NCBI GenBank assembly: GCA_017744355.1
Contig: JAGIBK010000001.1
Location: 771,694-835,693 of the forward strand
From: a bacterium
GTDB taxonomy: Bacteria > Cyanobacteriota > Sericytochromatia > S15B-MN24 > UBA4093
DNA length: 64,000 nucleotides
Reading direction: 5' to 3'
How positions within the stretch are numbered: the first letter of the stretch is position 1; the number at the start of each line of letters is the position of its first letter. The notes beneath the pieces were generated by a model. That model saw only the letters and a program-made list of their open reading frames with translations. It made no database searches and had not been told where the DNA came from. Positions 2,894-52,036 of the stretch are shown here, piece by piece. The position numbers and the translations under genes were made by a program.

Positions 2894-2895
2894 CC

Positions 2896-3291: not shown

Positions 3292-3294
3292 CCC

Positions 3295-3546
3295 ATGTTG
3301 ATCTCTCGCGACGGTAGTCAGACCGTCCAGCCGCCACGGCTCGACTTCCCCTTGTCCCCGCCCTCGACGTCGTTCGTCGTCGAGCACGGCTTCGGCCGCC
3401 GGCCGAACACCGTGACCGTTCTCGCCGACCGGGGCGGCGGACGCCTCAAGGTGGTCCATCCCACCATCCTCTTCGGCCCCGCCCCGGCCTTTGACGTCAC
3501 GATCGTGACCTCGGCGCCCTTCACCGGTCTGGCTCTCCTCACTTGA
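3295..3546 (+). CDS. Hypothetical phage protein (83 aa)
   Basis: ATG at 3295-3297, tightly packed in the operon. No domain. Confidence 0.3.
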   Translation: MLISRDGSQTVQPPRLDFPLSPPSTSFVVEHGFGRRPNTVTVLADRGGGRLKVVHPTILFGPAPAFDVTIVTSAPFTGLALLT

Positions 3547-17670: not shown

Positions 17671-17682
17671 GTGAACGCCTCT

Positions 17683-21231: not shown

Positions 21232-21244
21232 AGGGTTTCTCCGT

Positions 21245-34950: not shown

Positions 34951-37569
34951 TCAGGCCTCCTTTCGCCCGAGTCGAGCGCCGGCCCGGCAAACCACCCCGT
35001 GCTCGCAGTACTCGCAAGCTGCCCGCTTGAGGTCAGGCGCAACGGGGAAGTGCCCTTCTTCCAGGTGGGCCTTCAACCGGCTCAAGAGCAGTTCCAGGGC
35101 CGGCTCGTCAACCTCGGCCCTGTGTCGCTTGGGCTTCGAGAGGGTGTAGTACGAGGCCTCCCGCACCGCCACGCCGGGGTACAGGGCCGGCGCCGCCGCC
35201 TCGATGTAGATGGGAAGTTGCAGGTCGATGGTGTTCTTGCGCGAGGCGTCCTGGGCCTTGCCGTAGATTGCGCTGCCGGCCTTGTAGTCGAGGATGACCA
35301 GCTCGCCACCAACGCGATCGATGCGGTCCACCTGCCCCTGGACCTTGAACCCCCTCCATTCCCCCTTGAAGTGGCCCTCGGTGGCGGCGATTTCGCCCCC
35401 CGCGTCGAGGAACCCCTCGTGCAGGACGGCGCGGCGCAGCACCGTCAGGTGCTCCTCCCGGCGGGCATCCCAGCCGGGAAGGTCGGACAGACGATATCCC
35501 AGCTCCGGAACGAGCTCGCCTTCGGCCTCCAGCATAGAGGCCTCGAGACGATCGAGCACGGATTGGCGCGGGTCGGTCGCTCCGATGGCCGCACGGCAGG
35601 CCAGCTCGAGGGTCTTGTGGTAGAGCAGCCCCCGGACCTGAGGCTCGATGCCCTCGATCGCCTCGTCAGGCTCCTTGATCCGCAGGACCTTTTGGGCATA
35701 CCAGCGGAAGGGACACTGCCCGAGGGATGAGAGCTGGCTGGCGCTAAAGGTTCGCCGGCGCCAGTCCACCGGGATCCCGGAGGTGCCGTCGTGAGGGTTG
35801 GCCTCCCGGAGCGAACCCGGCGCCTCCCGGCGGCGCTCGATGGCGAGCGCCATCCTGGCCCTCGCCAGCACGGCGTCTTCGTCCGCGTAGTCGGACAGGA
35901 TCTTGATCCGGCGTCCCTCCTCGGGGCTCGCGACCGGAACCTCGGGAGTTTCGAGCTTGATGCCGAGCCATCCGAAGGCCGGGCTGGGCAGGCGAGCTTT
36001 GCCCGCCTGGAGGCGAGAGCAGGTGAACGTCAGCGTCTCGGAGGCCACGGTGAGCAGCGAGTCGAACGTGAGCCGCTCCCGTCGGGCGGCAGACGTTGCG
36101 GTCTCGAGCGGAAGGCCGGCTGTCTCGAGGCGCTGGCGGGTGATGAAGTCCAGCACGGGATCGTCGTTCAGGCGCGCGGGAAGCTCGTCTTCCGCCGTCC
36201 CGATTACGAAAAGGTGCTTCACTCGTGCGCCAAAGAGCGCCAGCGGAGTATGCAGGCCCACGCCCCCCCGGGCGGGATGGGCCGGGGTCGTCAGGATGCT
36301 CAGGGCCTCCCGGACCTCCTGGAGGAACTCCGCCCGCGAGCGAGAAGAGGTATCTCGTTCGCCCAGAAGATCCAACGCTCGCGTGAACCGGCCCACGGCG
36401 ATCGTCTCGGCCGCCCAGTGGCGCGCACGCCGGACGATGCCCAGGCGCTGCAGCAGAACGCGCAGACGCTGGGCCCATTCCAATCCCGTGGCCGCCTCAG
36501 GCCAGACCAGTTCCTGGGTTGGCACCCCCAGCGCGGCCCACTCGTCGGGCCCATGGGGATGACTGGCTCGGGCCTCGAGACGCTTCTCGCCGTTGAGCGC
36601 CCGGCACAGCGGATGGCCCAGCAGTCGAAACGTGGGTTCGAAGGGAAGGTTTGTCTCGATCACCTCGGTGAGCAGACCCAGCCAGTGCCCGAAGCGAGTT
36701 TCTGAGAGCGGAATCTGGTACTCGGCATGGACCGGCACCCCATGTTCGGCGGCGATTGCGAGCACCAACGGTCCGTGGGCTGCATCGTCGCGGGCCGCGA
36801 TCGCGACCTCGGCGGGCGATGTCCCACCTAGCAGGAGCTCCTTGACATGGGCCAGCACGGCTCGTACCTCGGCCACCTGGTCCGCTAACTGCCAACCCCG
36901 CATTGTCGAGGGGCGCTGCGGCGCTTCCAGGTCGGCACGTTGCACCCGCCAGCCGGCTTGCTCAAACCGCTCGGCAAGGGCCACGTTCTCGTGAACCGCG
37001 TCGTGCTCACCTCCCGGTAGGATCAGGGCCGAGCCGGGAGCCGCCAACGCCAGCAGGAACGCTTCCTCATCGCGCCCCAGGCGCGGGTAACCGGTCACCA
37101 GCACCGACTGCCGCTTCACGGAGCCTTGAATCGCCAGCCAGTAGGTCTCGGCAGGATCATGGAGCCTCAGCTCACGAAGGCGAGCGAGGTAACCCTGGAC
37201 GAACCGAGCGACCTGCTGAACCCGGGGATCGTCGAATGCTGCAAGTTGTTCGAGGTCCAGTCCGGCGCGCAGCACCTCGGCCACGACGGGGGCCAGGCGG
37301 CGTGCGGTGCCAGCCGGGTCCGGGAACCCATGGGCAAGTGCGAGGTCACGCAGAAGGTGTGGCGCCGTGAGGGCATCGATGGCCGTCCGACCAGCGCGGG
37401 CGAGCAGACCCTGCGCCAGGCGTTGGAGGCTGACGTGTGGCACTCCGAGGGCCCGTGCGGCACGAGGATTGGGGGTCACGACCAGGCGACCAGGCACCAG
37501 GGCGGTTGCCTGAGGGTGCGGCGCCGATGTGAGGTAGAGGGTGGGGTTCGCCTCCCGTTCAGCCGTCAT
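34951..37569 (-). CDS. AddB-like subunit: degenerate helicase-like N-terminus + RecB-family nuclease with Fe-S cysteines
   Basis: 872 aa and no Walker A. C-terminal ILDYKAGSA nuclease motif. Cys pattern CPFRW...CEYCEHGVVC typical of the AddB iron staple. Directly abuts the AddA-like gene. Confidence 0.7.
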   Translation of the reverse strand: MTAEREANPTLYLTSAPHPQATALVPGRLVVTPNPRAARALGVPHVSLQRLAQGLLARAGRTAIDALTAPHLLRDLALAHGFPDPAGTARRLAPVVAEVLRAGLDLEQLAAFDDPRVQQVARFVQGYLARLRELRLHDPAETYWLAIQGSVKRQSVLVTGYPRLGRDEEAFLLALAAPGSALILPGGEHDAVHENVALAERFEQAGWRVQRADLEAPQRPSTMRGWQLADQVAEVRAVLAHVKELLLGGTSPAEVAIAARDDAAHGPLVLAIAAEHGVPVHAEYQIPLSETRFGHWLGLLTEVIETNLPFEPTFRLLGHPLCRALNGEKRLEARASHPHGPDEWAALGVPTQELVWPEAATGLEWAQRLRVLLQRLGIVRRARHWAAETIAVGRFTRALDLLGERDTSSRSRAEFLQEVREALSILTTPAHPARGGVGLHTPLALFGARVKHLFVIGTAEDELPARLNDDPVLDFITRQRLETAGLPLETATSAARRERLTFDSLLTVASETLTFTCSRLQAGKARLPSPAFGWLGIKLETPEVPVASPEEGRRIKILSDYADEDAVLARARMALAIERRREAPGSLREANPHDGTSGIPVDWRRRTFSASQLSSLGQCPFRWYAQKVLRIKEPDEAIEGIEPQVRGLLYHKTLELACRAAIGATDPRQSVLDRLEASMLEAEGELVPELGYRLSDLPGWDARREEHLTVLRRAVLHEGFLDAGGEIAATEGHFKGEWRGFKVQGQVDRIDRVGGELVILDYKAGSAIYGKAQDASRKNTIDLQLPIYIEAAAPALYPGVAVREASYYTLSKPKRHRAEVDEPALELLLSRLKAHLEEGHFPVAPDLKRAACEYCEHGVVCRAGARLGRKEA

Positions 37570-38207
37570 GGGTGCACCGGACGCTTCTGCGATGGGACCA
37601 CCGCCACCAGCTCGGACGGGGCCGCCACATAGAAGAGGGCGATATCGAGGTCCTGGGCCTCGCCCCGGACCAGATCCAAGGCGCTTTCTGTCATTCGCTC
37701 ATTGGCATCTCGTGCCGAATCGATCACCAGCATCGCCAGCTGCGGGATTGAGGCAGGCGCACGATGGGCAATCTCTTGACCCAGGGCATGCAGCTTCCTG
37801 AGGTCCTTGAGCACTTCCCCCGGGGATAGGCGTCCTTTGTCGCGCTCAGAGGCCTTGCTCTCCAGGGCCAGTAGCATCTGGCGCAGGGTATTGTCGCGGT
37901 TCCGGCGCCGCCAGTCGGCTTCGATGCCCTCGGCGAAAATGACCACATCCGGGATGGGCTCGAACCCTCCGCGGTAGCCCTCGGCCTTTCGCCGGTCGAG
38001 TTGCCGGAACAGCGTCGTCTTGGGACGCGGAATCCAGATCTTGACGTTCATTCCCAGCTGCTCGAGGGGAACCTGACCGTGCACGCGCAGTGCGTGGTAA
38101 ACCATCGCTTGGTAGTGCTGCTCCGAGCCGAGGACTGCGCAGCATTCCGTCGCGATAACCGGGAGAGCACGCTTTAAGGCTGTTAGTGCGTCTTTGGGCG
38201 TCTTCAT
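37566..38207 (-). CDS. Small PD-(D/E)xK-like hypothetical protein (213 aa)
   Basis: Candidate restriction-endonuclease-fold core (EPIPDVVIF ... LALESK). First structural gene downstream of the WYL regulator. 4-bp overlap with the AddB-like start. Confidence 0.35.
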   Translation of the reverse strand: MKTPKDALTALKRALPVIATECCAVLGSEQHYQAMVYHALRVHGQVPLEQLGMNVKIWIPRPKTTLFRQLDRRKAEGYRGGFEPIPDVVIFAEGIEADWRRRNRDNTLRQMLLALESKASERDKGRLSPGEVLKDLRKLHALGQEIAHRAPASIPQLAMLVIDSARDANERMTESALDLVRGEAQDLDIALFYVAAPSELVAVVPSQKRPVHP

Positions 38208-38258: not shown

Positions 38259-39263
38259 TTAAGTAACCATCGATTGCTTCTTGAATGGGTCAGGCTGGTT
38301 GACCTCCGTCGGCGCGAGTTCCGAGGCCATTCGGGCGATGGTGGCCTGAACCTCGGCAACCACAAAGTCGGGCTCGACCACCCGGGCCTGACCGCCGTAG
38401 GACAGAATCCTGCGCACGGCCCGCAAAGGAATGCTCTCCTTGATGGCCACCAGACGGCTGCCGTCAGGCGTCTCCTCAAGGACTCGCAGGCGCTGGGGAA
38501 CCCTCTGGAACCCCGAGGCCATCGACGCCGAGAGCCAGATCTGAAACTCAAAGGCTGGGACCTGATCCAGCGAGACTGGGGTATCGAGCACCTCGACAGC
38601 CGGGCTGGTCTTGGTGGAGCAGAAGCGATCCAGGCGGAATTCCCGGTTCTTGTGCCACTCCGTGCTGCCCTCGGCCTCGGGGCAGTGCGCATGGAGGTAC
38701 AGAAAGCCGTCCTGCCAGGTTAGATAGGCCCGGTCCACCAGGTACCGCTTGGGTTCGCGGTTCAGTGGACGATAGGTCAGGCGCATCATGCGGCCGGTCT
38801 GAATGCCATGCTGAAGGCTGTCGAGGACCTGCGCGTCGTAGGCCGTGTTGCCCGTCCTCAGGAGGCGACCGGTGTAGGGATCAGACAGGCCTTCGCGAAC
38901 CGAGGCAGGCACTCGCTCGAATAGCGTGCGAAGGCGCTCCGCTTCCGGCAACTTGAGATCCTCGAATAGCGCCACGGCGGTCTGCAGGGCCGCCGCTTCC
39001 TCGTTGTTGGCGAACAGCTCCAGGTGCCCCATGTCCAGCTCATAGGCCTGCTTGGTCAGCTTGTCGCCGGGGCCTAGCGGACGAAAGCCAATGCCCAGCT
39101 TGCGCAACGCCTTGACGTCGGCCGAGATTGAGGCTTCCGAGAGCCCGGCATCCGTCTCGTAGTCCGAAGACAGTTCCAGTAGGCGGCTGAGAACCTCACC
39201 CCGAAACAAGGGGCCAGTAAGCAGCATCTTGAGGATGTTCCAGCGGCGTTCGAACGCGTCCAT
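38259..39263 (-). CDS. WYL-domain transcriptional regulator (wHTH + WYL; BrxR/CapW-like)
   Basis: N-terminal HTH (ERRWNILKMLLTG...VLSRLLELS). Central WYL-type motif (YLVDRAYLTWQDGFLYLHAHC). The ATG at 39263 has a GAAGGGGG RBS. The track ORF extends to a TTG at 39329. Confidence 0.7.
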   Translation of the reverse strand: MDAFERRWNILKMLLTGPLFRGEVLSRLLELSSDYETDAGLSEASISADVKALRKLGIGFRPLGPGDKLTKQAYELDMGHLELFANNEEAAALQTAVALFEDLKLPEAERLRTLFERVPASVREGLSDPYTGRLLRTGNTAYDAQVLDSLQHGIQTGRMMRLTYRPLNREPKRYLVDRAYLTWQDGFLYLHAHCPEAEGSTEWHKNREFRLDRFCSTKTSPAVEVLDTPVSLDQVPAFEFQIWLSASMASGFQRVPQRLRVLEETPDGSRLVAIKESIPLRAVRRILSYGGQARVVEPDFVVAEVQATIARMASELAPTEVNQPDPFKKQSMVT

Positions 39264-39398
39264 CGCGCCCCCCTTCGACGAATTTGCATGAATTAGCTTG
39301 CTTGACCCATTCGTACCCCAACCGATCAAAACTAACCCTCGTTCGCTACCAAAACATCATGGCAACCGGAGTAGATTCGGTTTCGAGCGGAGGAATCA

Positions 39399-40367
39399 AT
39401 GCTAGACGTGAAGGTCAAGTCGGACACGATCTGGGTCGGCGAGCACTTCTCGGTCGACTTTCAGCGGACCCTGCGCATTCCTGACGACGGGATCGTCTAT
39501 CCGCTACCGCCCGGCCTGAGTCGCTTTCCCGTGCGCAGGGTCGACGACTACCTCGACCGAGTGCCGCCTGCCTGGCGTGAGCACGGTGGCGTCTTCATTC
39601 CCATGTACCAGCGAGAGGCGCTCTGGCTCTGCTTCGGCGGCTCCTACTGGAAGCCCCACGCGGTTAAGATCGCCATCGGCAAGATCAACGTGGTGACCGG
39701 TAGGGGCTGGGCTCAGCCCCTCGAGGAATCCCCTCAGGATTACCTCGTCTGCCCGGATCAGCCCTGGCTCGATGGGATCAATGCCGGGGAGGGGATGATT
39801 CGCCAGTTCGTCGCCATGCCGCTCGGCCAGGGGTACACCGTCGAGGGACAGCTCACCGGCGCCGAGAAACATGGAGGCATCCAGCTCATCGCCTTCGCCC
39901 CGAAGCCGGGGCGTTTTCCCGACGAGCCGCCGCGGGTCGAGACCTGCGATTACCTGGTTTGCGAGAGCGCGGCCGCACCGAGCATGGGCCTAGCGGCCGG
40001 CGGCAAGATGACCCAGAAGATCTATGCGGACGAGTACGGTCTCGACACCTGGGACCAGGAGAACTACGGGCGGGTGTTCATCCACATCGTCGACAGCATG
40101 GTGTTCCGGGAGATCACAGGGGAAGAACCGCCTCCCACGCCCGTCACGGCGAAGACCTACGCCCAATATCACCTGCCCTGGTTCTCCCTCTATGACGAAC
40201 TGAAGCAGGACCTACCGCCCTCGGGCATCCTCAAGGGGGTGAAGTCTGTCAAACAGGTCGACGTCGAGAAGGGCCACCAACCGCAGCAAGACGACAGCTC
40301 GGTGCCGGTGGACAATATCGTCAAGCTAGGCAAGAAGCCAAACACGGTCCGGGACGGCGAGTGGTAG
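39399..40367 (+). CDS. Hypothetical protein (322 aa), divergent from the WYL regulator
   Basis: Long ORF. No domain recognised by eye. Confidence 0.35.
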   Translation: MLDVKVKSDTIWVGEHFSVDFQRTLRIPDDGIVYPLPPGLSRFPVRRVDDYLDRVPPAWREHGGVFIPMYQREALWLCFGGSYWKPHAVKIAIGKINVVTGRGWAQPLEESPQDYLVCPDQPWLDGINAGEGMIRQFVAMPLGQGYTVEGQLTGAEKHGGIQLIAFAPKPGRFPDEPPRVETCDYLVCESAAAPSMGLAAGGKMTQKIYADEYGLDTWDQENYGRVFIHIVDSMVFREITGEEPPPTPVTAKTYAQYHLPWFSLYDELKQDLPPSGILKGVKSVKQVDVEKGHQPQQDDSSVPVDNIVKLGKKPNTVRDGEW

Positions 40368-40438
40368 CCGTGCTGCCGCTGGGTGTCCCGATTGTCTTCC
40401 CGAGCCCTCAATTCAACTCACAAAGGAGTTCCCGCGCC

Positions 40439-40861
40439 ATGCGAAGTCCCATACTCCCGCTCCTCACGACCGCGATGCTGGTCTTGGGATCGACCGCTCT
40501 TTCTGGTTGTAACGCCCTCTCCGGAATCTCCTCGTTGCCCGGCGTATCCTCGGTCGTTCCGGCGCCCAGCATCGATGGCGACTGGCTGGTGGTGCGTCCC
40601 GGATTCTCGACCTTCAGCCTCTCGCTTTACGAGAAGGGCGGGAAGATCACGGGTTCGGCTGGGACCGAACCCTATACGAATCCGCTGGCCGGTACCCGGA
40701 CGGGGAACAAGGTCGAGTTCGTCATCACCTTCAAGGACAGCACGACCGTCACCTACAGCGGGGACCTCAGCTCCGACGGTTCCCAGATCACGGGCGTCAT
40801 CGGCTCGGGTAGCTCAGCAGCCGATACCTTCACCGCCAACAAAAAGTCCTCCTCGCGCTGA
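40439..40861 (+). CDS. Lipoprotein (about 140 aa)
   Basis: AAAGGAG RBS. MRSPILPLLTTAMLVLGSTALSGC forms a signal peptide with a lipobox Cys. S/T/G-rich body. Confidence 0.5.
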   Translation: MRSPILPLLTTAMLVLGSTALSGCNALSGISSLPGVSSVVPAPSIDGDWLVVRPGFSTFSLSLYEKGGKITGSAGTEPYTNPLAGTRTGNKVEFVITFKDSTTVTYSGDLSSDGSQITGVIGSGSSAADTFTANKKSSSR

Positions 40862-40887
40862 AGCACAGCTGCGGAAAGGCCCGGTGA

Positions 40888-41727
40888 TTGATGCGCGACG
40901 ACGAGGAATTGTCGATCGATCCTGGTGATGACGAGCAGGGGCAAGATCTGATCGCCGAGATCGAGGCCCTCTGGGAGCAGCTCCAAGACGGGCTGCCCCC
41001 AGAGGAGCGTACGAATTTCGAGGGGACCCCGCGTTCGGTGTTCGCAATCGGCACAGCTACTCAACTTCGGTTGTTCGTCGAACCCGACCTCCCCGCCGTG
41101 CCCGGCCTCGATGCGCACGAGTTGTTTGACGAAACGGTCCCCCTGGAGGCCAGCCTCCAGAAGCTTTGTCGCTGGATTGCTGCCCGCCGCGGCAAGCGAT
41201 GCACGGCCCGGCAGCGATCCCTTCTCCGGTGGCATCTCGAGACCCGGGCGGCGGCGATCCCCCTTCACCTGGTCTTCGAAGGGGAGCCATCCATGCAGGT
41301 CACCATCCTCAACCCCGCAGCGAGCCGGGACTGGGACGATGAGGTCCCGGTCCTCGACGGCTGGCATGAGGAGCAGTTTCTGCGCCGGTTCTCGGGGATC
41401 CGCGAGAAGACCCTCGACTACCTCCAAGATGCCGAGAGCAAGTACATGGTGTTGCTGGGCTTGGAGCCCTGGCACACGTTCTACGCGACCGAGGTCGACT
41501 TCCTGCACGAGGTCGCAAGCTACGAGCTCATCATCACGCTCGGCCGATCCGGCCTGGTGGAGCATGTGCAGGAGGCTTTTGCCTACCTCGTGGCGAGAGA
41601 CCGGGGGATCGATGCCGAAACCGCGGCGACCTTCCAGCGATTCAAGCTGCTCTACCTGTTCGCCAAGGGTCTGGCGACCGACGACGAGATCCCGTCGCTT
41701 GACGATGAAGACGAGGTCCTGTTCTGA
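40888..41727 (+). CDS. Hypothetical acidic cytoplasmic protein (279 aa)
   Basis: Long ORF, D/E-rich. No domain recognised. Confidence 0.35.
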   Translation: MMRDDEELSIDPGDDEQGQDLIAEIEALWEQLQDGLPPEERTNFEGTPRSVFAIGTATQLRLFVEPDLPAVPGLDAHELFDETVPLEASLQKLCRWIAARRGKRCTARQRSLLRWHLETRAAAIPLHLVFEGEPSMQVTILNPAASRDWDDEVPVLDGWHEEQFLRRFSGIREKTLDYLQDAESKYMVLLGLEPWHTFYATEVDFLHEVASYELIITLGRSGLVEHVQEAFAYLVARDRGIDAETAATFQRFKLLYLFAKGLATDDEIPSLDDEDEVLF

Positions 41728-41728
41728 G

Positions 41729-42238
41729 ATGGCGGAGATAGGGCTGCTCCTGTGCCTGGTCATGGCGGCGTTCTCGTTGGTGTTCTGGGTGACCGGCGCC
41801 GCGATCGCCTGGGTCGGCGAGTTGCTGGACTTGCTGATCAGTTGTGGCAAGAGGGCTGCGAAGCCGGACCGCGGGCGGCATCGTAGGCCGTTGATAACAC
41901 GCTACCCTGCGACAGCCCTGGGAACGAGACCTTACGACTACCTCCTGGTGGAAGCGGCTCGGCACTACTTCCGGAGGGTCAACGATCGTCACCAGGAGAT
42001 ATTGGCAGCGTTGCCGGCCCCTGACAGTGACAGGCGCCGTGCTCTGGACGATTTCGACTTGGCGCGGGCGCACGAGATGGCCACCCTTGGTTTCCTGGTC
42101 GGCAGGATTGTAGCCTCGAGGGAATCGGAAGATGAAGACACTTCGATGACGGCTACGATGACTGAAGGTCGCCGACGGCGACAGCTTGCCTGCCATGCCT
42201 ATCAGGGCTATCGTAATCATCGGCGTGCAGTTTTCTGA
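41729..42238 (+). CDS. Hypothetical membrane-anchored protein (169 aa)
   Basis: ATG 2 bp after the previous stop. N-terminal TM (IGLLLCLVMAAFSLVFWVTGAAIAWV). Confidence 0.35.
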   Translation: MAEIGLLLCLVMAAFSLVFWVTGAAIAWVGELLDLLISCGKRAAKPDRGRHRRPLITRYPATALGTRPYDYLLVEAARHYFRRVNDRHQEILAALPAPDSDRRRALDDFDLARAHEMATLGFLVGRIVASRESEDEDTSMTATMTEGRRRRQLACHAYQGYRNHRRAVF

Positions 42239-42253
42239 GCAAGGTAAGGTGCC

Positions 42254-44617
42254 ATGCGGTTACGCTCGTTCCCTCTTCCCGAATACGTCAAGGACCGGCA
42301 CGTCTGCTTCCGGGATCCTTGTCGTGATTTCCTGGTAATTGCCACTCCCGAGGAGCGCGTGAGGCAAAATGTACTCCGAACCTTGATGGAGGGCTACGGC
42401 TACCCACAGGAAGCACTTCGCACTGAACTGAAGATGGCTCGCGGCAAGGCCGACCCGCGTCGCTCGGATGTCGTCGCCATGGTCCCGGGGCCCGACTCCG
42501 AGCTTAATGTTCCCTTCCTCGTGGTTGAGTGCAAGCGTCCAGGAATCATGCTGGGCCAGGAGGTAATCGAACAGGGCAACTACTATGTGGGCAAGCTGGG
42601 AGCCTCTTTCCTGGTGCTTACAAATGGCCAGGAGTCCACGCCCTATGCAGTGACTCGCGAGGGGCTGCGAAAAGTTGCCGACATCCCCACCTTTGAACAG
42701 GCATGCAGCGGCACTGGCTGGGAGGCTCGCTACATGGTGGAGCCCAGCTATGTGCGGCCCAGCATGGGGCAATTACGGGACGACGAGTGGGTGGGCGAGG
42801 TCTTCGCGGACCACATCGGGGCCGATACCCCCCGCGAGCTTTGGGCGTCGATCGCCAACTTGACCTCCTTGTTCTACGTTGATGAGCCGCTCTTCACTTC
42901 ACCCATCGACGCTCCGGCCGGCTATAGATTGGTCGAGGATTGGGGAGCCCGGATGCATCGCTTTACAAATGCCGGCGGCGGAGATTGGCCCGGTTGGTAC
43001 CGTAGCCTGCTGGTGCGCGATCGCGAAGGTGGCGACCATCTTGTCAGGCTTGCCCTGATGGCCAGCGCAAAAACTGAACACGACCTTCACTGGGGGAACA
43101 TCGCGGGCCGCACCTACCTGCTGGTAGCCGTCAGCGACTTCTTCGCCACCCACAACGCCCTGCAACTCAACGTCAACACCCACTGGGAGCTAGATTCCGC
43201 ACAACGGGTGGTTCGGGTTTCGCACTCGGGGGCCATGAGTGGCCGCGGCTCCTACAAGCATGAGCGAGTCGTCTCATGGGTGGCACAACATGCCCCAGAA
43301 CTGGTCGAGCAAGACCTTGTGATGCTGGGTAGCTTCCCGGTCGAGCGGCTGCTGGAATGGCAGGACATCGAGCTGTTGGTTGCCAATCTATGTGTCTACG
43401 CTCTGTTGCGTGACGGGTTGCGGAGCGAGGAGAAGCCCGGTGCAAAGCGAGGGACTCCTTCCAAACCTGCGATTCGGGAAAGTCTGGCCGCTGCGATCGC
43501 CGATCCTACAAAGCGTGATCTCCCAAACCGCAGCGGACACACGCCCCTGATGCAAGCCGCCTTCCGGGGCTACGATGACCTCGTGGCCTGCGCGCTGGAC
43601 GCAGGGACGTGCCTCGATACGCAGGACCTCGCCGGAATGTCAGCCCTAATGCATGCCGCCAGCAAGGGACGGCTTGCGGCCGTCGAGCGACTGATGGCAG
43701 CCGGCGCTAACCCAGACCTGATCAGTAGGGATTCCCAGAGCGCCCTTCACCTGGCGATCGAGGGGGGATTCGGGGATGTCGTCAAGGCTCTGGTCGGCGC
43801 TGGTGCTTCCACGACGATCCGCGACGGCCAAGGAGTAGATGCCTTGCTGTCCGCCATCTACGCGGACCTCGAAACGATCGCATGCTGGCTTATCTCCCGG
43901 AGCGTGTGCCTGCAGACCCGCAGCGAGGGGGGGCAGAATCCGCTGCATGCCGCGGCCCAACAGGGCCACCTAGAGGTCGCCAGACTACTCGTGGCTGCTG
44001 GCCTGGAGGTCGATCCGCGCGATCGCGAGGGCTGGACACCGCTGATGTTCGCCGCACAGCAAGGACACTTCGAGGTGCTCCGTTTGCTTCTTGATGCCGG
44101 AGCCGACCCTCACGCCACCTGTTCGGACACCGAGGATCCGGTGGTGAATTTTGCCGCCGATGGCGACAGCCCCGCGGCGCTCGATCTGTTATTGGCCAGA
44201 GGTGCTGATCCCTTTCAACCGAACAAGGAGGGTCGAGCCGCCCTGGCAATCGCTGCCTCGGCTGGTCAGGTCCCGAATCTGGTGCGCCTCCTGGCTCTAT
44301 CCCATGATCTGGAAGTAAGGGGCGACGATGGCGCCACTCCCCTAATGCTGGCTACTGCCGGTGGGCACCTGGGCGCCGTGGAAGTCTTGATTCGGGCAGG
44401 CGCAGATCTCGAAGCTCACGACAACGAGGGACTGACCGCCCTCCACATAGCGGTCGCCTGCTGTCAACTCGATTCGTTCCGGTGCCTTCTGGCTCACGGG
44501 GCCAATGCCCATGCCCTCACCGCGGAAGGAAAGACTCCACTTGATCTCGCGCGGAACGCCGGTTGGCGGGAGTTCGAGCAGGTTCTGATATTGGAGGAAA
44601 GTCGGGGAGTGTGGTGA
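42254..44617 (+). CDS. HSDR_N-type PD-(D/E)xK nuclease domain fused to about 10 ankyrin repeats (787 aa)
   Basis: The N-terminal 140 aa match the type I R-subunit N-terminal nuclease domain pattern (RSDVVAM...FLVVECKRP...LVLTNG). The C-terminal 350 aa are tandem ANK repeats (GHTPLMQAA..., G.SALMHAASKG..., GQNPLHAAAQQGHLEVARLL...). Confidence 0.7.
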   Translation: MRLRSFPLPEYVKDRHVCFRDPCRDFLVIATPEERVRQNVLRTLMEGYGYPQEALRTELKMARGKADPRRSDVVAMVPGPDSELNVPFLVVECKRPGIMLGQEVIEQGNYYVGKLGASFLVLTNGQESTPYAVTREGLRKVADIPTFEQACSGTGWEARYMVEPSYVRPSMGQLRDDEWVGEVFADHIGADTPRELWASIANLTSLFYVDEPLFTSPIDAPAGYRLVEDWGARMHRFTNAGGGDWPGWYRSLLVRDREGGDHLVRLALMASAKTEHDLHWGNIAGRTYLLVAVSDFFATHNALQLNVNTHWELDSAQRVVRVSHSGAMSGRGSYKHERVVSWVAQHAPELVEQDLVMLGSFPVERLLEWQDIELLVANLCVYALLRDGLRSEEKPGAKRGTPSKPAIRESLAAAIADPTKRDLPNRSGHTPLMQAAFRGYDDLVACALDAGTCLDTQDLAGMSALMHAASKGRLAAVERLMAAGANPDLISRDSQSALHLAIEGGFGDVVKALVGAGASTTIRDGQGVDALLSAIYADLETIACWLISRSVCLQTRSEGGQNPLHAAAQQGHLEVARLLVAAGLEVDPRDREGWTPLMFAAQQGHFEVLRLLLDAGADPHATCSDTEDPVVNFAADGDSPAALDLLLARGADPFQPNKEGRAALAIAASAGQVPNLVRLLALSHDLEVRGDDGATPLMLATAGGHLGAVEVLIRAGADLEAHDNEGLTALHIAVACCQLDSFRCLLAHGANAHALTAEGKTPLDLARNAGWREFEQVLILEESRGVW

Positions 44618-44716
44618 AACGCCTAGCCAGACCGGCTATTCCAAGCAAACAGCGACTCATCAAGCCCTCACCCCGTAGGGCTATGAAGCTCGGGGAACAG
44701 AGCACGGACTCGATGC

Positions 44717-45334
44717 GTGATAGGAACTGATATGACCCAGGAAAATGGCTCGCCAGCAGGAAGGGCAAGGGAATGGACACTGGCTGGGCTGGCAACCGCA
44801 CTTGCTGCCGTGGCTGCCCTGCTTTGGGTTGGCGGCATCCTCGTTCAGTTGGCCAACCACAAAGCCCAGCCCGAGCTGGTCGTGGCCGAGATCTTGGCAG
44901 CCGAACTGCTTGCAGTGGCTGGCCTCTTGGCCCTGATGATCCGCCAGCACGCCATCAGCTTGGACGGACCAACCCGACTGGCTCTCGCGAGCTGCTTGGT
45001 GGTCGCTAACATGGTCCTCTTGCCCAGCCCGTCCCCGACCGGCATTATCGGAATGGTCCTGTTGTTATGGGGGATCGTGTTCTTGATGCTCCTGAGTGGC
45101 GGATTCTCGGCACTCCTCCGGCCAACACCCTATGCGATCCGGACCGGCACCGAAGCCAGTGGCTGTGCTGCCGCGTTGTACTCTCCCCTGCTCCTGTTTC
45201 CGCTGGGGTTGGCGTCCGCACTGATCTATACTGTTATGGGACGGATGCTGCTGATCTTCTTTGTTGGGGTCGGCCTCTTGGTGTTCGGGGCCTGTTTCCT
45301 CAAAGCCGCCCTGGAGGAGCGCTCTCAACCCTGA
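44717..45334 (+). CDS. Polytopic inner-membrane protein (about 5 TM, 205 aa)
   Basis: Multiple hydrophobic helices. No domain recognised. Confidence 0.4.
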   Translation: MIGTDMTQENGSPAGRAREWTLAGLATALAAVAALLWVGGILVQLANHKAQPELVVAEILAAELLAVAGLLALMIRQHAISLDGPTRLALASCLVVANMVLLPSPSPTGIIGMVLLLWGIVFLMLLSGGFSALLRPTPYAIRTGTEASGCAAALYSPLLLFPLGLASALIYTVMGRMLLIFFVGVGLLVFGACFLKAALEERSQP

Positions 45335-45372
45335 TGCAGGGTGCGGAGCAACGAAGGACAAGAGGGAGGACC

Positions 45373-46083
45373 ATGACTGGCGTTCGTAGAGGTACCGGTA
45401 GACGACAGGCGCGGGAGGGCGAGATCGGTCAGGCCGAGATTCGCCGCGATGTTGCCGCCTGGTCCCGCGAGCAGCTGGAGCAGTTCGCCATCGTGCAGAT
45501 CCTCAGCAGCACTGTGCTGCGCGATCGCCTGCGCCGCAAGCTGGCCGTGACTCGCAGTCCCGCTGCTGCGCTGGAACAGCTCATCGCCGACGTTGATCGG
45601 GTCCTGGACGTTGACTTCATCGAGAGGCGCGAGGTTCGATCGTTCATCGACGATCTCGATGAACTCCTGGCGGCCATCGAGACCATGGCGGAGGTTGCGC
45701 CCGAGCAGGCGGTTGATGCCGCCCTGCACTTCCTCGAGGCGATCCCCCGGGTCTTTGAACGCGTCTACGACGAGTGCGAGCTGGCGACGTTCTGCTCGGA
45801 GCTGGCAACCCTTGCTGTGAAGCTCGCTGCTCGCTCGTCCCGGGGCATCTGGACTACAGGACAGAAGCTCGTGAAGGCGTACCTGACTGACGACTACGGG
45901 CGGTTTGACGAAGTGCCAGAGATCATGGCCAAGGCCCAACTCGATCGGGATCAGCGCTTGGCGCTCGCCGGCATCCTCGAATCCGAGGCCGCTCGGCTTG
46001 ACCAGTTCCAGGGCGCTCGTCTAACAGCTGCAGCCCATCGCTTGCGACTTGCCCGGGGCCCGCGGCGGAAGGTTTCGACATAG
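45373..46083 (+). CDS. Hypothetical alpha-helical protein (236 aa)
   Basis: ATG at 45373 with an AGGGAGGA RBS. No domain recognised. Confidence 0.35.
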   Translation: MTGVRRGTGRRQAREGEIGQAEIRRDVAAWSREQLEQFAIVQILSSTVLRDRLRRKLAVTRSPAAALEQLIADVDRVLDVDFIERREVRSFIDDLDELLAAIETMAEVAPEQAVDAALHFLEAIPRVFERVYDECELATFCSELATLAVKLAARSSRGIWTTGQKLVKAYLTDDYGRFDEVPEIMAKAQLDRDQRLALAGILESEAARLDQFQGARLTAAAHRLRLARGPRRKVST

Positions 46084-46123
46084 GCGCTGTCTTGCACGCC
46101 CCCGGAGCCATGCGGAATCAGGG

Positions 46124-47032
46124 CTAATCCTCCTGGCCGAGCATCGTCCTGGCCTGCTTGCAGAACTCCTCCCAGGACAGCGCGCCCATCTGAACCTCGT
46201 CCTCCCACTCCCGGAGCTGCTCCACGATGTCGCTGTCCTCGAACCAGTCATCGAGCAGGTCATGGAGCTCTCGGAGGTTGGGAACGCGGGGGCCATCGAG
46301 CAGGGTGCGAACATCGGCGAGCAACTCCCGAAGAAGCCTCGCCTCCTCCTGTTTCGACGTTTCGTCCCGCAGCCCGTACTTCACCAGCAGCAAGTCGAGG
46401 CCCTCTTCCTCCTCCAGGGCGGTCCGCGCATCATCGGTGCCCCATTCGCCGCCGCATGAGAAGGCCAGTAGCTTGGTGCTGCTCCACATCAGGTGGCCAA
46501 GGTGAGACATCAGCTGCTCCTTGAAGGCCACTGGCAAGTCTGGCGTCCGATCGAGCAACCGCTGGATGTAGCGCACGTCCCTGACCTGATCGCTGGTCTT
46601 CTCGATGCACCAGGAGCTCATGTCGAACTGGAACTCCGGCGAGTGCAACTCGAACCGCTTGGTGCGGATGGGGGTGCCCAAATACGGCAGGAGCATGGCG
46701 CTCACGACGTAGGTGACGTCCTCGTCCTTCACGGTCCAGTACAGCGCCAGGATGCCTGTACCACCACCCGTCAGCCTTCCGGGCGTGAGCGAGACGAACG
46801 GTCCACTGCCGATCCCCTCGCCGGTCCAGATATCGCCGGCCCATCCTGCGGTACGCGCCTCCACCTGGGCTTCCTCGATGATGCCGAAGGCATGGGCCTT
46901 TCGCTCGGCGGACCCGGGCTCGTCCCCGGCCAGGCAGGCCAGGTAGGGCTCGAGTGCCAGGTTGGCAGGTAACGCGTCGGCGCCCTCGAGACGGTAGACG
47001 TAGCGGAGATGGAGCTTCGGCTCGGCTTGCAT
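46124..47032 (-). CDS. Hypothetical protein (302 aa)
   Basis: Long ORF on the opposite strand with an acidic C-terminal tail. No domain recognised. Confidence 0.35.
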   Translation of the reverse strand: MQAEPKLHLRYVYRLEGADALPANLALEPYLACLAGDEPGSAERKAHAFGIIEEAQVEARTAGWAGDIWTGEGIGSGPFVSLTPGRLTGGGTGILALYWTVKDEDVTYVVSAMLLPYLGTPIRTKRFELHSPEFQFDMSSWCIEKTSDQVRDVRYIQRLLDRTPDLPVAFKEQLMSHLGHLMWSSTKLLAFSCGGEWGTDDARTALEEEEGLDLLLVKYGLRDETSKQEEARLLRELLADVRTLLDGPRVPNLRELHDLLDDWFEDSDIVEQLREWEDEVQMGALSWEEFCKQARTMLGQED

Positions 47033-47501: not shown

Positions 47502-50441
47502 ATGTTTGCCAACAATCGTAAAGAGCTGAACCTGGTGAATCCGCCCGAGGGCAAGAAGGGCCTACGGGAAAGCCAGCTCGGTGCCGTGATGGCGGCAACC
47601 TCCCACTTCACGGTCAACCGGGACCCTGCGCTCATCTGCATGCCGACCGGGTCGGGCAAGACCGCGGTCCTGATGGCGCTCTGCTATCTCTTGTCAGCGA
47701 AAAAGGTTCTGCTCATCACGCCAAGTCAGCTCGTCCGCAGGCAGATCGCTAAGGATTTCAGCGAGCTTGCGACGCTTCAGCGGATCGGGCTGCTGCCTAC
47801 GACTGTCGCCGCACCCCGGGTCATTGAGGTGAAGAACCGGGTCAAGGACGAGGCCGCCTGGCAGAAGCTGCTGGCTGAGTACGACGTGCTGGTTGCAACC
47901 CCCAACAGCGTCAGCCCCTCGACGAAGAGTGGCATCTCGCCGCCACCAGATGGCGCCTTCGACGTCGTTCTTGTTGATGAGGCTCACCATAGCCGAGCGA
48001 AGACCTGGGCGGATCTGCTTGCGCAGTTTCCGACTGCGAAGCAGATTCTCTTGACCGCAACGCCTTTCAGGCGCGACGGGCGCGACATTCGCGCCCGCTT
48101 TGTCTACAACTACCCCTTGCGCAAGGCGGTCGAAGACGAGACCTTCGGCGAGATCCAGTACGTGCCCATCGACGTGGAACCGGAAAAGGTGGACCGGGAG
48201 ATAGCCAAAAAGGTCGAAGCGATTTTTTTGGAGGACAAGAAGGCGGGCCTCGAGCATCGCGTCATCGTGCGCACCAGCCGCAAAGACCGGGCTGATGAGC
48301 TGTATGACCTCTACAAAACGCACGCCCCCAGCCTGCGGCTCGCGGTCGTGAGCAGCAATAAGTCGATGGCGGTTATCGAAAAGGCCATCGACGGACTCGA
48401 GAAGGGCGACCTGGATGGCATCATTTGCGTCGACATGTTGGGTGAGGGCTTTGATATGCCCAATCTCAAGATCGCGGGCCTGCATGCCCCCCATAAGTCG
48501 CTGGCCATAACGCTCCAGTTCATCGGTCGGTTTGCTCGAACCATTGTCAAGCAGAGCGGCCAGAAAATCGGCCCGGCCAAGTTCGTGGCGGCGCTCAATG
48601 ACATGGAGATCGAGAAGGAGAAGCTCTTCAGGGAAGACGCCGATTGGAAGCGCATCATCGTAGATCTCAGCGAGAAGCGTATCGGCACGGAGCTTTCGAC
48701 CCAGGAGTTCTTTGAGGCGTTCGATGTGCTCAAGGAGCCGATGGATGCCGACGTGCCGCAGTACCTCTCCAAGACGAGCTTCCGACCTTTCTGCCACGTC
48801 AAGGTCTTTGAGGTCGTGGGTGGGTTCGCCCTGCGCGCGAGTCTTGATTCGCCCAATCACGACGTGCTGTTCCATGAGATCAGCGTCAAGCATCAGACCG
48901 CAGTCATTGTCTGGGCAACCCGCAAGAAGCCAAAGTGGCTGAAAGACGATGTCTTGAGCAATGTCACCCACGAGATGGTCGTCGTCCACTACGACCCGAC
49001 AACCCGGTTGATGTTCGTTTGCTCCACCGACCGAAGGGAGGAGTTCTACGCGCACGTCCTCAGTCAGTTCGTGGGGGGGATGTACCGCGAGCTGCCCTTG
49101 ACGGTGCTCCGGCGGGCGATGGCCGGTTGGACGGACGAGCGGTTCAGTAGCGTAGGCATGCGTAGTCGCCGCTTCCGGACCGGCACCGAGTCCTATCAGA
49201 TCAAGGCGGGCTCGAATACTCAGCTGGCCGTACATGCGTCGGACGGCCAGAACTACGTGGGGGGGCATCATGTCGGCAGCGGCAAGAACGAGAAGGGCCA
49301 GACCGTCTTGCTGGGGCTCAGCGGCACGTCCAAGATGTGGACGATCAAGTACGTTCCAATACCTGAGCTTATCGAGTGGTGCGATGAGCTCGCTGTAAAG
49401 GTTTCCGACGAGACCCATGACCAAGCAAAGTTACCACTCGGGGACGTCTTCGAGTACGGTGAGCAAATTACAGCATTCCCCAATGGCCTGGATCCGTTTG
49501 CCGGCGAATGGCACATGGATGTCTTCAAGAATGGGCACCGGGCGAGACTCGTCGACAGCAATGGCTCTTCAACTGTAGCGCCGCTTCAGGACCTCGAGTT
49601 GCAGGTTGATCCTAAGCAGAGCACCACCAACCGACTCGTGTTCACCATTGGCAAGGGCTCCACCAACGTCGAATTCGATTTGGTCCTCAAGCCCTTCCCG
49701 ACGTTCTCTGTGACCCCAGGCCAATCTTGCGCCTTGTACGCGTGCCACGGGCAAGACGTAGACGGCGACTTCGTGACCTACCTCAACGGAAAGCCGCCTG
49801 TCTTCTACTTTGAGGATATGTCCTCCCTCGCACAGAAAGATGTCTACGTGGCTCGCAAGACCGACGTTGTCCATTTCCCTGTCGGCCGGCTAGATTGCGT
49901 TGACTGGAAGGTCGCCAAGGTAGACATTCGGCAAGAAGTGACCACGTCGAAGGTGGGGCACACCTCGATCCACGACCATTTGAAGAAGGCGCTTTTGCCC
50001 TTGTTCGACGTGCTCATCTACGACCAAGGTGCAGGCGAGGTGGCCGACTTCATCGGATTCGAGAATGGGGCGACACCCCGCGTCGTACTCTACCACTGCA
50101 AGGGCTCGGGCAAGACCACAGCAGGTAGCCGGGTCGACGACCTCTATGAGGTTTGCGGTCAGGCCATCAAATCCGTTCAATGGGCAGATAAGCGCCGTTT
50201 GCTCGAGAACCTCAATAACACCAACCGCAAGGTCAGGCAGTACCTCAAGGGGACGGCCGCGGACGCCCAAGCCATCGTAGCGGCGATTGGCGGCCGTGAC
50301 TTCGCTCTCGAAATCGTCATCGTCCAACCAGGGCTCAAATCCAAGCCCAAGGTCGTGGACCGTCTTGCCCGCCTCCTCGGTGCTGTAGATGAGCATCTCC
50401 ACTCCAGTACGGGCTCTCAGCTGCGGGTGATGTGTTCCTGA
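47502..50441 (+). CDS. SF2 DEAH-box helicase with C-terminal PD-(D/E)xK/NERD-like nuclease-type domain (979 aa)
   Basis: Motif I CMPTGSGKTAV. Motif II VLVDEAHH. Motif III LLTATP. Motif VI QFIGRFART. C-terminal candidate nuclease core (FDVLIYDQGAGEVADF...VVLYHCKGSG). Confidence 0.7.
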   Translation: MFANNRKELNLVNPPEGKKGLRESQLGAVMAATSHFTVNRDPALICMPTGSGKTAVLMALCYLLSAKKVLLITPSQLVRRQIAKDFSELATLQRIGLLPTTVAAPRVIEVKNRVKDEAAWQKLLAEYDVLVATPNSVSPSTKSGISPPPDGAFDVVLVDEAHHSRAKTWADLLAQFPTAKQILLTATPFRRDGRDIRARFVYNYPLRKAVEDETFGEIQYVPIDVEPEKVDREIAKKVEAIFLEDKKAGLEHRVIVRTSRKDRADELYDLYKTHAPSLRLAVVSSNKSMAVIEKAIDGLEKGDLDGIICVDMLGEGFDMPNLKIAGLHAPHKSLAITLQFIGRFARTIVKQSGQKIGPAKFVAALNDMEIEKEKLFREDADWKRIIVDLSEKRIGTELSTQEFFEAFDVLKEPMDADVPQYLSKTSFRPFCHVKVFEVVGGFALRASLDSPNHDVLFHEISVKHQTAVIVWATRKKPKWLKDDVLSNVTHEMVVVHYDPTTRLMFVCSTDRREEFYAHVLSQFVGGMYRELPLTVLRRAMAGWTDERFSSVGMRSRRFRTGTESYQIKAGSNTQLAVHASDGQNYVGGHHVGSGKNEKGQTVLLGLSGTSKMWTIKYVPIPELIEWCDELAVKVSDETHDQAKLPLGDVFEYGEQITAFPNGLDPFAGEWHMDVFKNGHRARLVDSNGSSTVAPLQDLELQVDPKQSTTNRLVFTIGKGSTNVEFDLVLKPFPTFSVTPGQSCALYACHGQDVDGDFVTYLNGKPPVFYFEDMSSLAQKDVYVARKTDVVHFPVGRLDCVDWKVAKVDIRQEVTTSKVGHTSIHDHLKKALLPLFDVLIYDQGAGEVADFIGFENGATPRVVLYHCKGSGKTTAGSRVDDLYEVCGQAIKSVQWADKRRLLENLNNTNRKVRQYLKGTAADAQAIVAAIGGRDFALEIVIVQPGLKSKPKVVDRLARLLGAVDEHLHSSTGSQLRVMCS

Positions 50442-50767: not shown

Positions 50768-52036
50768 ATGACCAACAACTTTGAAGAGCGCCTCAAGAAC
50801 GTGCGTGATCTTCTCCGATCCACCGATGAGATGTTCGAAAACGCCGTAAGCTATCTCCCGAAGGACATCCAGAAATTTATCCGTGAACAGGTCTACGACC
50901 GCCTTTTTGGTGAGCTAAGGGAGTCTATCGTTCAGTCTCGCCCGCCCCGCATCATGGTCATCGGACGTACGGGCCACGGCAAGTCGTCGTTCATCAATGC
51001 CCTGGCGGGGCGGAGGGTTGCCGAAACCAGCAAGGATAGACCTGGTCAGCACCAAGCCGAGGAGCATCCCATCGTCTTTCCAAGTGGGTTCTCATGGAAC
51101 GTAATTGACTCCCGCGGGCTTTTCGATGCGACGACTCCGGATGGGGCCAGCGAAACGAATGCCGCAGACACCCTAAAGAGAGACTTGGAAACGTACGATC
51201 CTGATGTAATCATCCACGTTCTGCCGGCGAACGAGCGAGCAATCAGCGAGGACCTAACGGTCTTCCGTCGCTTCCAGGATGGATTCCGGGTCTCAAAGCC
51301 AACCATCATAGTCTTGAACAAGGCCGACGCAGTCAATCCGCTTAGAGCCTGGCCTCCCGAGGCATACCCCCAGAAGGCCGGCGAGTTGTTGGCCCACATG
51401 CGATACCTTGCCGATGAAGTTCTGCGGGTCGAGCACGAGGATCTCGTGGAAGATAGACCCTTCTTGGGATTCTTGGTAAAGGACAGCGCGTATCAGGCAA
51501 TCATTCCCGTGGCGTCTTACCGTGAGGAAGGCGAAGAAGAGTGCGTTTGGAACCATGATTTGGTTCGTTCATTCATCGGTAATGTTCTGCCCAAAAGTGC
51601 TCAGTTCTCCTTTTACGTTGCGCAGAACAACATGAGCTTATTGCGTGAGTACACAGACAACATCATAAACTCGTTTGTTGTTGCAGCGGGAGGGGTTGGC
51701 GGCACTCCGATACCCGTTGCCGATATTGTCGTTCTTACACCTCTGCAAATGCTGATGATCGCTCTAATTGGAACAATGGCCGGACGTCCTCCGTCGATGG
51801 ACACCGCGACGGAGTTCCTTGCCGCGGCTGGCGTCAATGTGGGCGTCGGACTTGGACTACGGGCCGCTGCCCAAACCATCTTGAGGGTCTTCCCGCCGAC
51901 TGCCCCTTTCGCTCCCTTTATCAGCGCGGGCGTCGCGTCACAGGGAACCTTGGCCTTGGGCAAGGCGGCACAGGCGTACTTCTTCAAGGATGTGACTGAT
52001 CCCGGAGGTGCCGGAAAAGTCCCCGTTACACCGTAG
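50768..52036 (+). CDS. P-loop GTPase with C-terminal DUF697-like hydrophobic domain (422 aa)
   Basis: G1 IMVIGRTGHGKSSFINALAG. G3 DSRG. G4 LNKAD. The C-terminal G/A-rich hydrophobic region resembles DUF697. Lower GC than its surroundings. Confidence 0.6.
   Translation: MTNNFEERLKNVRDLLRSTDEMFENAVSYLPKDIQKFIREQVYDRLFGELRESIVQSRPPRIMVIGRTGHGKSSFINALAGRRVAETSKDRPGQHQAEEHPIVFPSGFSWNVIDSRGLFDATTPDGASETNAADTLKRDLETYDPDVIIHVLPANERAISEDLTVFRRFQDGFRVSKPTIIVLNKADAVNPLRAWPPEAYPQKAGELLAHMRYLADEVLRVEHEDLVEDRPFLGFLVKDSAYQAIIPVASYREEGEEECVWNHDLVRSFIGNVLPKSAQFSFYVAQNNMSLLREYTDNIINSFVVAAGGVGGTPIPVADIVVLTPLQMLMIALIGTMAGRPPSMDTATEFLAAAGVNVGVGLGLRAAAQTILRVFPPTAPFAPFISAGVASQGTLALGKAAQAYFFKDVTDPGGAGKVPVTP

Follow-up and report, generated by a model that had tools for sequence, protein, structure and literature searches.

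A nuclease joined to a β-rich reader domain is the layout of PvuRts1I/AbaSI and of MspJI, and many bacterial proteins with ankyrin repeats (ANK) are secreted effectors, directed at eukaryotes or at competitors. In bacterial defence proteins related to the NLR family, repeat arrays are treated as sensors of an antigen-receptor type, and are thought to recognise phage proteins (bioRxiv 10.1101/2022.07.19.500537). We describe here a gene, designated nuclease-ANK, from a 64,000-nucleotide stretch of contig JAGIBK010000001.1 from a member of the Cyanobacteriota (the window). It encodes a PD-(D/E)xK nuclease domain, a β-rich domain and an ankyrin array in one protein of 787 residues. A first-pass annotation, made from the DNA sequence alone, had proposed that this nuclease-ankyrin fusion belongs to a membrane-associated module together with the surrounding lipoprotein and membrane protein genes. 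The fusion is confirmed; the module is not supported. Our preferred reading, held with moderate confidence, is that the protein is a solitary cytoplasmic endonuclease with a self-sufficient core, to which the ankyrin array adds protein recognition, most likely so that the nuclease is licensed or targeted in response to a protein of a phage or other mobile genetic element (MGE).

The gene and the parts of its product are as follows.

42254 to 44617, + strand: nuclease-ANK, 787 residues, described from Pfam, alignments and an AlphaFold2 (AF2) model
Residues ~25 to 148: HSDR_N_2 PD-(D/E)xK nuclease (Pfam match, residues 32 to 145)
42326 to 42700, + strand: catalytic core, with E58, D72, E92-C93-K94 (VVECK), Q107xxxY111 and T123-N124-G125
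42701 to 43438, + strand (residues ~150 to 395): β-rich domain, which defines the family, from AF2 and the alignment
Residues ~396 to 426: flexible linker
43532 to 44614, + strand (residues 427 to 787): 11 ankyrin repeats with an exact 33-residue period

Pfam searches with the 787-residue protein show that the fusion is real. HSDR_N_2 (PF13588) scores 69.9 bits, where the cutoff is 25 (E=2.4e-19), and ankyrin models span approximately residues 430–780, with Ank_2 at E=6e-56 (187 bits, cutoff 27.3). The protein is identical to one already recorded (P0036). PADLOC gives matches to PDC-M72A (E=4e-54), Ankyrin (E=1e-36) and MzaA (E=2.5e-17), all within residues 479–779 and thus to the ankyrin part only, the nuclease core having no counterpart in these models; the PDC-M72A match spans profile positions 215–361 of 392, and no neighbouring gene matches any PDC-M72 model. 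In NCBIfam, MzaA reaches 122 bits against a cutoff of 800, and the best of the Legionella Dot/Icm ankyrin effector models, AnkY, reaches 108 bits against a cutoff of 600, again over the repeats only. Given that all of these matches are confined to the repeats, and that the NCBIfam scores are far below their cutoffs, the array is described here simply as ankyrin.

The nuclease domain has clear relatives of known structure. Its profile matches HsdR (PDB 3h1t, E=4.5e-8) and RM.BsaXI (8w0p, E=4.9e-7), 3h1t is also the best Foldseek match of the core model, and residues 22–146 are matched by the PADLOC MTase_I models. These matches make it a domain of the type that Type I and Type IIB/IIG restriction enzymes carry at their N-terminus. 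A family alignment of 113 members was scored for conserved positions. The residues E33, E34 and R37 (in the TPEExVRQ helix), E58, D72, E92, K94, Q107, Y111, G242, Y382 and R386 are invariant, and R24, C93, N124, G125, N239, Y249, H300, L303, H324, G326, G359 and R390 are conserved in at least 90% of members. The window protein has the conserved set of the family, namely R24, TPEExVRQ, E58, D72, ECK, QxxxY, TNG, N239, G242, Y249, H300, G359, Y382 and R386. From general knowledge of PD-(D/E)xK enzymes, we take D72 and E92-x-K94 together with Q107xxxY111 to be a complete catalytic set of the RecB/HsdR type. As judged from sequence, the active-site motif set is intact, and the catalytic residues of the VVECK motif, which the first-pass annotation had singled out, do not vary among the 113 members.

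The AF2 model of residues 1–417, made from the family alignment, is confident (predicted local distance difference test (pLDDT) 94, predicted template modelling score (pTM) 0.89), and contains only the nuclease and the β-rich domain. An α/β nuclease extends to about residue 148. A helical connector leads from it to a sheet of about 10 strands (residues 225–362), after which there is a long C-terminal helix (residues 369–393). A segment at residues 400–406, directly before the ankyrin array, is disordered in the model. The pLDDT of the β-rich domain is mostly above 90, and its conserved residues are N239, G242, Y249, H300, L303, H324, G326, G359, Y382, R386 and R390. It has no Pfam match even at E<=10, and no significant Foldseek match in PDB or BFVD. 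The complete protein has no transmembrane (TM) segment and no signal peptide, and Pfam finds no polymorphic-toxin delivery domain in it. A superfamily 2 (SF2) translocase (ResIII plus Helicase_C) was not found in the 787 residues by Pfam, PADLOC or NCBIfam, nor was a STAND, NACHT, NB-ARC or AAA NTPase detected by Pfam or PADLOC.

The first ~400 residues constitute an uncharacterised family, whose members carry the generic annotation 'HsdR N-terminal domain-containing protein'. A word-index search with residues 1–417 gave 35 proteins, nearly all of 373–410 residues and covering about 90% of the query, and none of these has ankyrin repeats. Searched with a family profile, 1.84 billion clustered proteins yielded 440 cluster representatives at E<=1e-30; among the best 150, 116 have lengths of 360–450 residues and 17 are longer than 480. 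The window protein matches the family profile with E=5.9e-134, and is colinear with it across both domains (approximately residues 1–395). Over this range, full-length homologues have 25–49% identity and keep all the conserved residues. The family is mostly stand-alone and occurs in free-living Firmicutes and Proteobacteria. Two of its members are DZB84_18390 of Bacillus sp. HNG and WP_269562310.1 of Hymenobacter canadensis. In the Bacillus sp. HNG locus there are two paralogous copies, at 2252–3376 and 10001–11197, less than 8 kb apart on one contig. Our literature search found no published description of either the family or the nuclease-ankyrin architecture, and in the literature searched PF13588 is mentioned only in a 2012 classification of PD-(D/E)XK proteins.

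The family is not phage-borne. Among 50,697 phage records no full-length match was found, 2.9 million IMG/VR contigs gave a single one, and PHROGs gave none. It is also rare on plasmids (2 of 72,556), and DNA nearly identical to the window was not found in plasmids.

The first-pass annotation had taken the fusion not to be a described defence architecture. The fusion is rare: it occurs in two representatives (P0036 and P0040) among the best 150 of the 1.84 billion clustered proteins, and no additional nuclease-ankyrin loci were found in the Joint Genome Institute (JGI) metagenomes. P0040 has 829 residues and a 12-repeat ankyrin array, and its alignment to the window protein is colinear across 778 residues (43% identity). 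It is concluded from this colinearity that the fusion has been inherited and maintained, and is not a local accident. Between P0036 and P0040, the nuclease and β-rich domains share 52% and 56% identity, respectively, and the ankyrin array 35%; the ankyrin part thus evolves faster than the nuclease core. Other members have acquired different repeats. P0090 and P0125 have N-terminal Sel1 repeats and P0178 has N-terminal TPR repeats; further long members bear unannotated extensions. Three kinds of protein-binding solenoid (ANK, Sel1 and TPR) recur on one enzymatic core in different lineages, a pattern of repeat swapping that is also seen in the 'antigen-receptor-type' domains of bacterial NLR-related proteins. 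The suggestion that the ankyrin array serves in recognition gains indirect support from the Sel1 and TPR variants and from the lower identity of the array.

The genes around nuclease-ANK, on which the proposal of a module was based, are listed below.

38259 to 39329, − strand: WYL/WCX regulator (Pfam)
39399 to 40367, + strand: g322, 322 residues, no assigned function
40439 to 40861, + strand: lipoprotein gene, encoding a signal peptide with an LSGC lipobox at its end
40888/40891 to 41727, + strand: acidic279, an acidic protein of 279 residues, isoelectric point (pI) 4.5
41729 to 42238, + strand: TM169, 169 residues with a single N-terminal TM helix
44717/44732 to 45334, + strand: TM205, a polytopic membrane protein of 200–205 residues with about 5 TM helices (hydropathy)
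45373 to 46083, + strand: DUF6880-like gene, 236 residues, with a weak DUF6880 match (E=7e-10), earlier called a 'helical protein'
46124 to 47032, − strand: gene for a protein of 302 residues, convergent with the + strand string

The window comes from a metagenome-assembled genome, on a contig of 1.16 Mb, and its genes carry locus tags of the form J7643_039xx. The open reading frames of the gene string are at the positions first given for them, and the short gaps are real. Two corrections apply: the 302-residue gene, which lies within the coordinates first given (39399–47032), is on the minus strand, and therefore cannot belong to a + strand operon, and a gap of 100–114 bp separates nuclease-ANK from TM205. 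The DUF6880-like gene and the convergent 302-residue gene (45373–47032) are unrelated variable cargo. The junction between acidic279 and TM169 is TGA-g-ATG at 41725–41731, and the nuclease-ANK start codon (ATG at 42254) is preceded by a 15-bp spacer containing the Shine-Dalgarno-like AAGGTAAGG. Just upstream of nuclease-ANK, acidic279 and TM169 are coupled in translation, and the pair is not an obligate partner of the nuclease. A scan for consensus promoters and terminators gave nothing above the expectation from shuffled sequence.

A search for co-occurrence was made by tblastn, using 13 window proteins against the loci of homologues. We searched 81 loci (L001–L081), 45 of which carry a full-length homologue. 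Apart from the nuclease core itself, no window protein is matched in the 81 loci at E<=1e-3, the single exception being a GTPase-like protein matched in two loci from Johnsonella. Near the homologues in L001 and L002, the window neighbours have no match at E<=1e-2, and at the two loci of P0040 (L083 and L084) they give chance-level matches only (E>=0.68, at a threshold of E<=10); P0040 is flanked by small open reading frames (ORFs) and an RcpC/SAF gene. When 705 neighbouring ORFs from the 45 full-length loci were clustered, no family reached beyond 8 loci, and none kept a fixed position. Similarly, 148 nearest neighbours match 132 different Pfam families, none of which occurs in more than four members. 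A methylase or specificity-subunit (hsdM/hsdS) match is absent from the window genes between 37566 and 47032, and none recurs near homologues. The homologues are therefore scattered, with no conserved neighbours, and the core as a rule functions alone, with no partner gene conserved beside it.

The closest stand-alone homologue (P0001, in L001) is followed by a 200-residue protein with 5 TM helices. This is the only locus in which a polytopic membrane gene was seen downstream, and 43 of the 45 loci are without one by hydropathy. TM205 has no similarity to the L001 protein (E=33).

The GTPase (50768–52036, + strand; 422 residues, MMR_HSR1/AIG1-like) is the sole window gene that recurs near a homologue. 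In the Johnsonella loci L049 and L062 (8715–9848) a relative with 26% identity lies approximately 150–350 bp upstream of the nuclease-family homologue, which may be a coincidence or a loose association within islands.

Two related loci show how the gene string is put together. The first, L085, has 76% nucleotide identity to the window across the region from the WYL regulator to the lipoprotein and 67% across AddA/AddB. The order in L085 is AddA-AddB, a different insert, then WYL-g322-lipoprotein, and the synteny ends at the lipoprotein stop codon (window ~40860), beyond which there are helix-turn-helix (HTH) regulators, AbiE and a SAVED gene. The second, L091, lacks the nuclease and retains acidic279, with 81% identity, together with a TM protein that is 52% identical to TM169. 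In L091, approximately 0.9 kb of DNA, which includes a gene in the opposite orientation, takes the place of window ~42120–45347 (nuclease-ANK plus TM205). Beyond it, a 170-bp stretch where the DUF6880-like gene begins is again homologous, only the first ~30 codons of this gene being shared, and a Prok-JAB gene comes next. The presence of a different cassette at this site in L091 indicates that it is a hotspot for cassette exchange. The replacing gene (L091 1219–2214, − strand) has two repeated motifs and is DUF2924-like by eye. Next to it, the Prok-JAB gene and a gene for 616 residues (L091 2528–4902, − strand) may constitute a defence module of ubiquitin-like conjugation.

The string is thus made up of at least four units that assort independently: WYL-g322-lipoprotein, acidic279-TM169, nuclease-ANK-TM205, and the rest. 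Nuclease-ANK and TM205 form an accessory indel cassette, present or absent between close relatives. Acidic279 and TM169 are a lineage-restricted pair, acidic279 having only two homologues in 5.8 billion clusters. Acidic279 was tried as a candidate antitoxin and rejected, given that it occurs without the nuclease in L091 and that no nuclease homologue has acidic279. Because the genes belong to cassettes with different distributions, a membrane-associated module is not supported, and the lipoprotein, acidic and TM genes on either side owe their position to island mosaicism and do not encode subunits.

One of the units is of interest independently of the nuclease. The WYL/WCX regulator (− strand), g322 and the lipoprotein gene (both + strand) form a conserved trio (38259–40861), separate from the nuclease cassette. 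The g322 family has more than 8000 matches, with 60–67% identity and about 80 invariant positions, and ranges over Firmicutes (Thermincola), Rubrobacteraceae, cyanobacteria and Acidobacteriota. It is matched by nothing in Pfam, NCBIfam, PADLOC or PHROG, and its AF2 model (pLDDT 70) has no fold match in PDB. Members are usually solitary beside a divergent regulator, which is WYL in the window and L085, and a GerE-type response regulator in L096–L099. In Thermincola potens, g322 has the gene for an OB+HD protein on one side and a ThsB-TIR gene on the other, with a type III CRISPR locus nearby. A family that is so widespread, highly conserved and unannotated merits attention of its own. Between AddB and the WYL regulator, the window has a gene for a basic protein of 213 residues (37566–38207, − strand; pI 9.1) with no family match in any library. 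In L085 this is replaced by four genes (DUF6998, OB+HD, and genes for 124 and 271 residues), making a second variable slot.

The wider setting contains the following systems.

7960 to 25456, − strand: complete type 2 BREX/Pgl (BrxHI, BrxD, PglZ, BrxC/PglY, PglX, PglW), PADLOC matches near full length, E down to 0
26026 to 29408, − strand: McrBC, upstream of the string
29496 to 31756, − strand: ADP-ribosylglycohydrolase (475 residues, E=2e-82) and DEDDh/RNase T-type exonuclease, overlapping by 4 bp
47502 to 50441, + strand: ResIII/DEAD helicase, 979 residues, with the motor (ResIII/DEAD/Helicase_C) at residues 20–350

This agrees with the location first described, near defence clusters and beside a WYL regulator, and the gene is confirmed to lie in a bona fide defence island. 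The ADP-ribosylglycohydrolase and exonuclease genes, which have McrBC on one side and the AddA/AddB-like genes on the other, are possibly a pair with a role in defence; the exonuclease matches the PADLOC PDC-S48 and Cas-associated DEDDh models. The AddA/AddB-like genes are upstream on the minus strand, 5 kb from nuclease-ANK. The helicase is a separate gene 2.9 kb from nuclease-ANK, with three genes between, and its ~630 C-terminal residues have no Pfam match and weak PADLOC matches to Type I/IV restriction endonucleases and PbeA. The guanine plus cytosine (GC) content is 0.68 in the AddAB region, 0.62 across the string from g322 to the 302-residue gene, and 0.56–0.59 further to the right. Elsewhere, P0001 adjoins a type III-B Cmr operon and the homologue in L027 adjoins a PDC-S37/Hhe-like gene; a few nearest neighbours of homologues match the MkoA, PDC-S01 and IetA models.

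On our preferred reading, the C-terminal solenoid of 11 ankyrin repeats would have been acquired by the core family in this lineage. The PD-(D/E)xK core is predicted to cut DNA, and the ankyrin array would be a protein-recognition module, which either binds a phage or MGE protein and so licenses the nuclease, or tethers it to a cellular partner. The protein would then be an immune sensor and effector in one chain, without the NTPase switch of Avs/NLR-type systems, and it is a plausible candidate for single-gene defence. A broader proposal can be made, although we consider it rather unlikely to hold as a whole: the HSDR_N_2 plus β-rich proteins may be a new single-gene family of anti-phage nucleases, with interchangeable ANK, Sel1 and TPR arrays as phage-protein receptors, NLR-like without an NTPase, and with the β-rich domain as a new regulatory or DNA-reading fold. 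Several points count against the defence reading. No described homologue ties the family to defence. The association of the family as a whole with defence genes is mixed, the evidence being anecdotal co-location at individual loci: the L002 homologue is among metabolic genes, and seven of the nine large homologue neighbours tested have no PADLOC match. Most members have no repeat array, so that sensing by repeats is not a general mechanism of the family, and the faster divergence of the ankyrin array could reflect weaker constraint on the repeats. A solitary nuclease without a methylase needs self-protection, and no such factor was identified. Finally, the β-rich domain would supply substrate binding or control, which is a guess.

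The main rival is a Type IV-like restriction endonuclease, modification-dependent or specific for foreign DNA, in which the β-rich domain would read DNA and the ankyrin array would serve in localisation or oligomerisation. This we regard as possible but on balance doubtful, and it and the sensor-effector reading are not mutually exclusive. It would account for a single gene whose neighbours include no cognate DNA methylase, in an island that contains McrBC and BREX, and for a family of which most members need no repeat array. The closeness of the nuclease domain to Type I and Type IIB/IIG enzymes, including the MTase_I matches, and the resemblance of the layout to PvuRts1I/AbaSI and MspJI are also in its favour. 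The repeated gain of protein-binding arrays is left unexplained by it, however, and the β-rich domain has no detectable likeness to SRA, EVE/PUA or other known readers (Foldseek against PDB; Pfam). A role outside defence, as an accessory nuclease of DNA repair or recombination that lies in the island incidentally, is improbable. The gene is close to AddA/AddB-like genes that are syntenic in L085, and many homologues are not beside recognisable defence genes; against this, the distribution is sporadic and differs between close relatives, the neighbourhoods are extremely variable, the GC content is below that of the upstream core genes, and fusions to repeat arrays are atypical for repair nucleases.

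The module proposed at first, in which the lipoprotein, acidic and TM proteins act with nuclease-ANK, for instance by forming a sensor that is anchored in the membrane and controls the nuclease, is already largely refuted by comparative genomics, and we regard it as very improbable. Neither the 45 full-length loci nor the second nuclease-ankyrin gene has a homologue of a window neighbour (the Johnsonella GTPase excepted), the trio persists alone in L085 and the acidic and TM pair in L091, and neither a TM segment nor a signal peptide is present in the nuclease-ANK protein. The features that suggested a module, the shared strand and the very short gaps between acidic279, TM169 and the nuclease, are set against these. 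A partnership of nuclease-ANK with TM205 is weakly indicated, given that the two were gained or lost together once relative to L091 and that P0001 has an analogous downstream gene for a 5-TM protein of about 200 residues; the dissimilarity of these two TM proteins, and the 43 loci that lack such a gene, speak against it. Even less probable in our view is a toxin, either in a toxin-immunity or addiction pair with acidic279 as inhibitor or DNA mimic, or as a secreted effector directed at eukaryotes or competitors. The gene for the acidic protein lies immediately upstream, apparently within the same operon, and the repeats match the Legionella Dot/Icm effector models, albeit over the repeats only and far below the cutoffs. 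There is no signal peptide or polymorphic-toxin delivery domain in the protein and no adjacent secretion-system gene in the window, and a family that is mostly stand-alone in free-living bacteria fits poorly with such a role.

If the family is defensive, a compact single-protein nuclease system and a new fold would be added to the catalogue of defence systems. It would also provide a simple model of repeat 'receptors' coupled to an effector without an NTPase switch, with the ANK, Sel1 and TPR arrays as natural swaps of specificity. A more general point is that tight spacing inside a defence island is not evidence of a functional module; this island is a patchwork of no fewer than four cassettes that move independently.

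Compared with HsdR and with Type IIB/IIG enzymes such as RM.BsaXI, the window protein has the same PD-(D/E)xK fold and the same D...ExK and QxxxY motifs, but it lacks the SF2 translocase, methyltransferase and specificity domains, and has in their place a β-rich domain and ankyrin repeats. It cannot be classed as an HsdR subunit, since it lacks a motor domain and has no hsdM or hsdS gene beside it. It resembles STAND/NLR proteins (Avs, bNACHT) in combining a nuclease effector with a repeat array, which is ankyrin here and Sel1 or TPR elsewhere in the family. It differs from them in being much smaller and in having no NTPase switch, so that activation driven by oligomerisation cannot be assumed; the lack of the NTPase means that it is not a STAND/NLR sensor. 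Compared with its own stand-alone family (~370–410 residues), it has approximately 390 additional residues, comprising the linker and the 11 ankyrin repeats, and shares this addition only with P0040. What is new here is a rare nuclease-ankyrin fusion in an unstudied family, and the known kind to which it belongs is either that of nuclease effectors coupled to repeat sensors or that of solitary nucleases resembling restriction enzymes.

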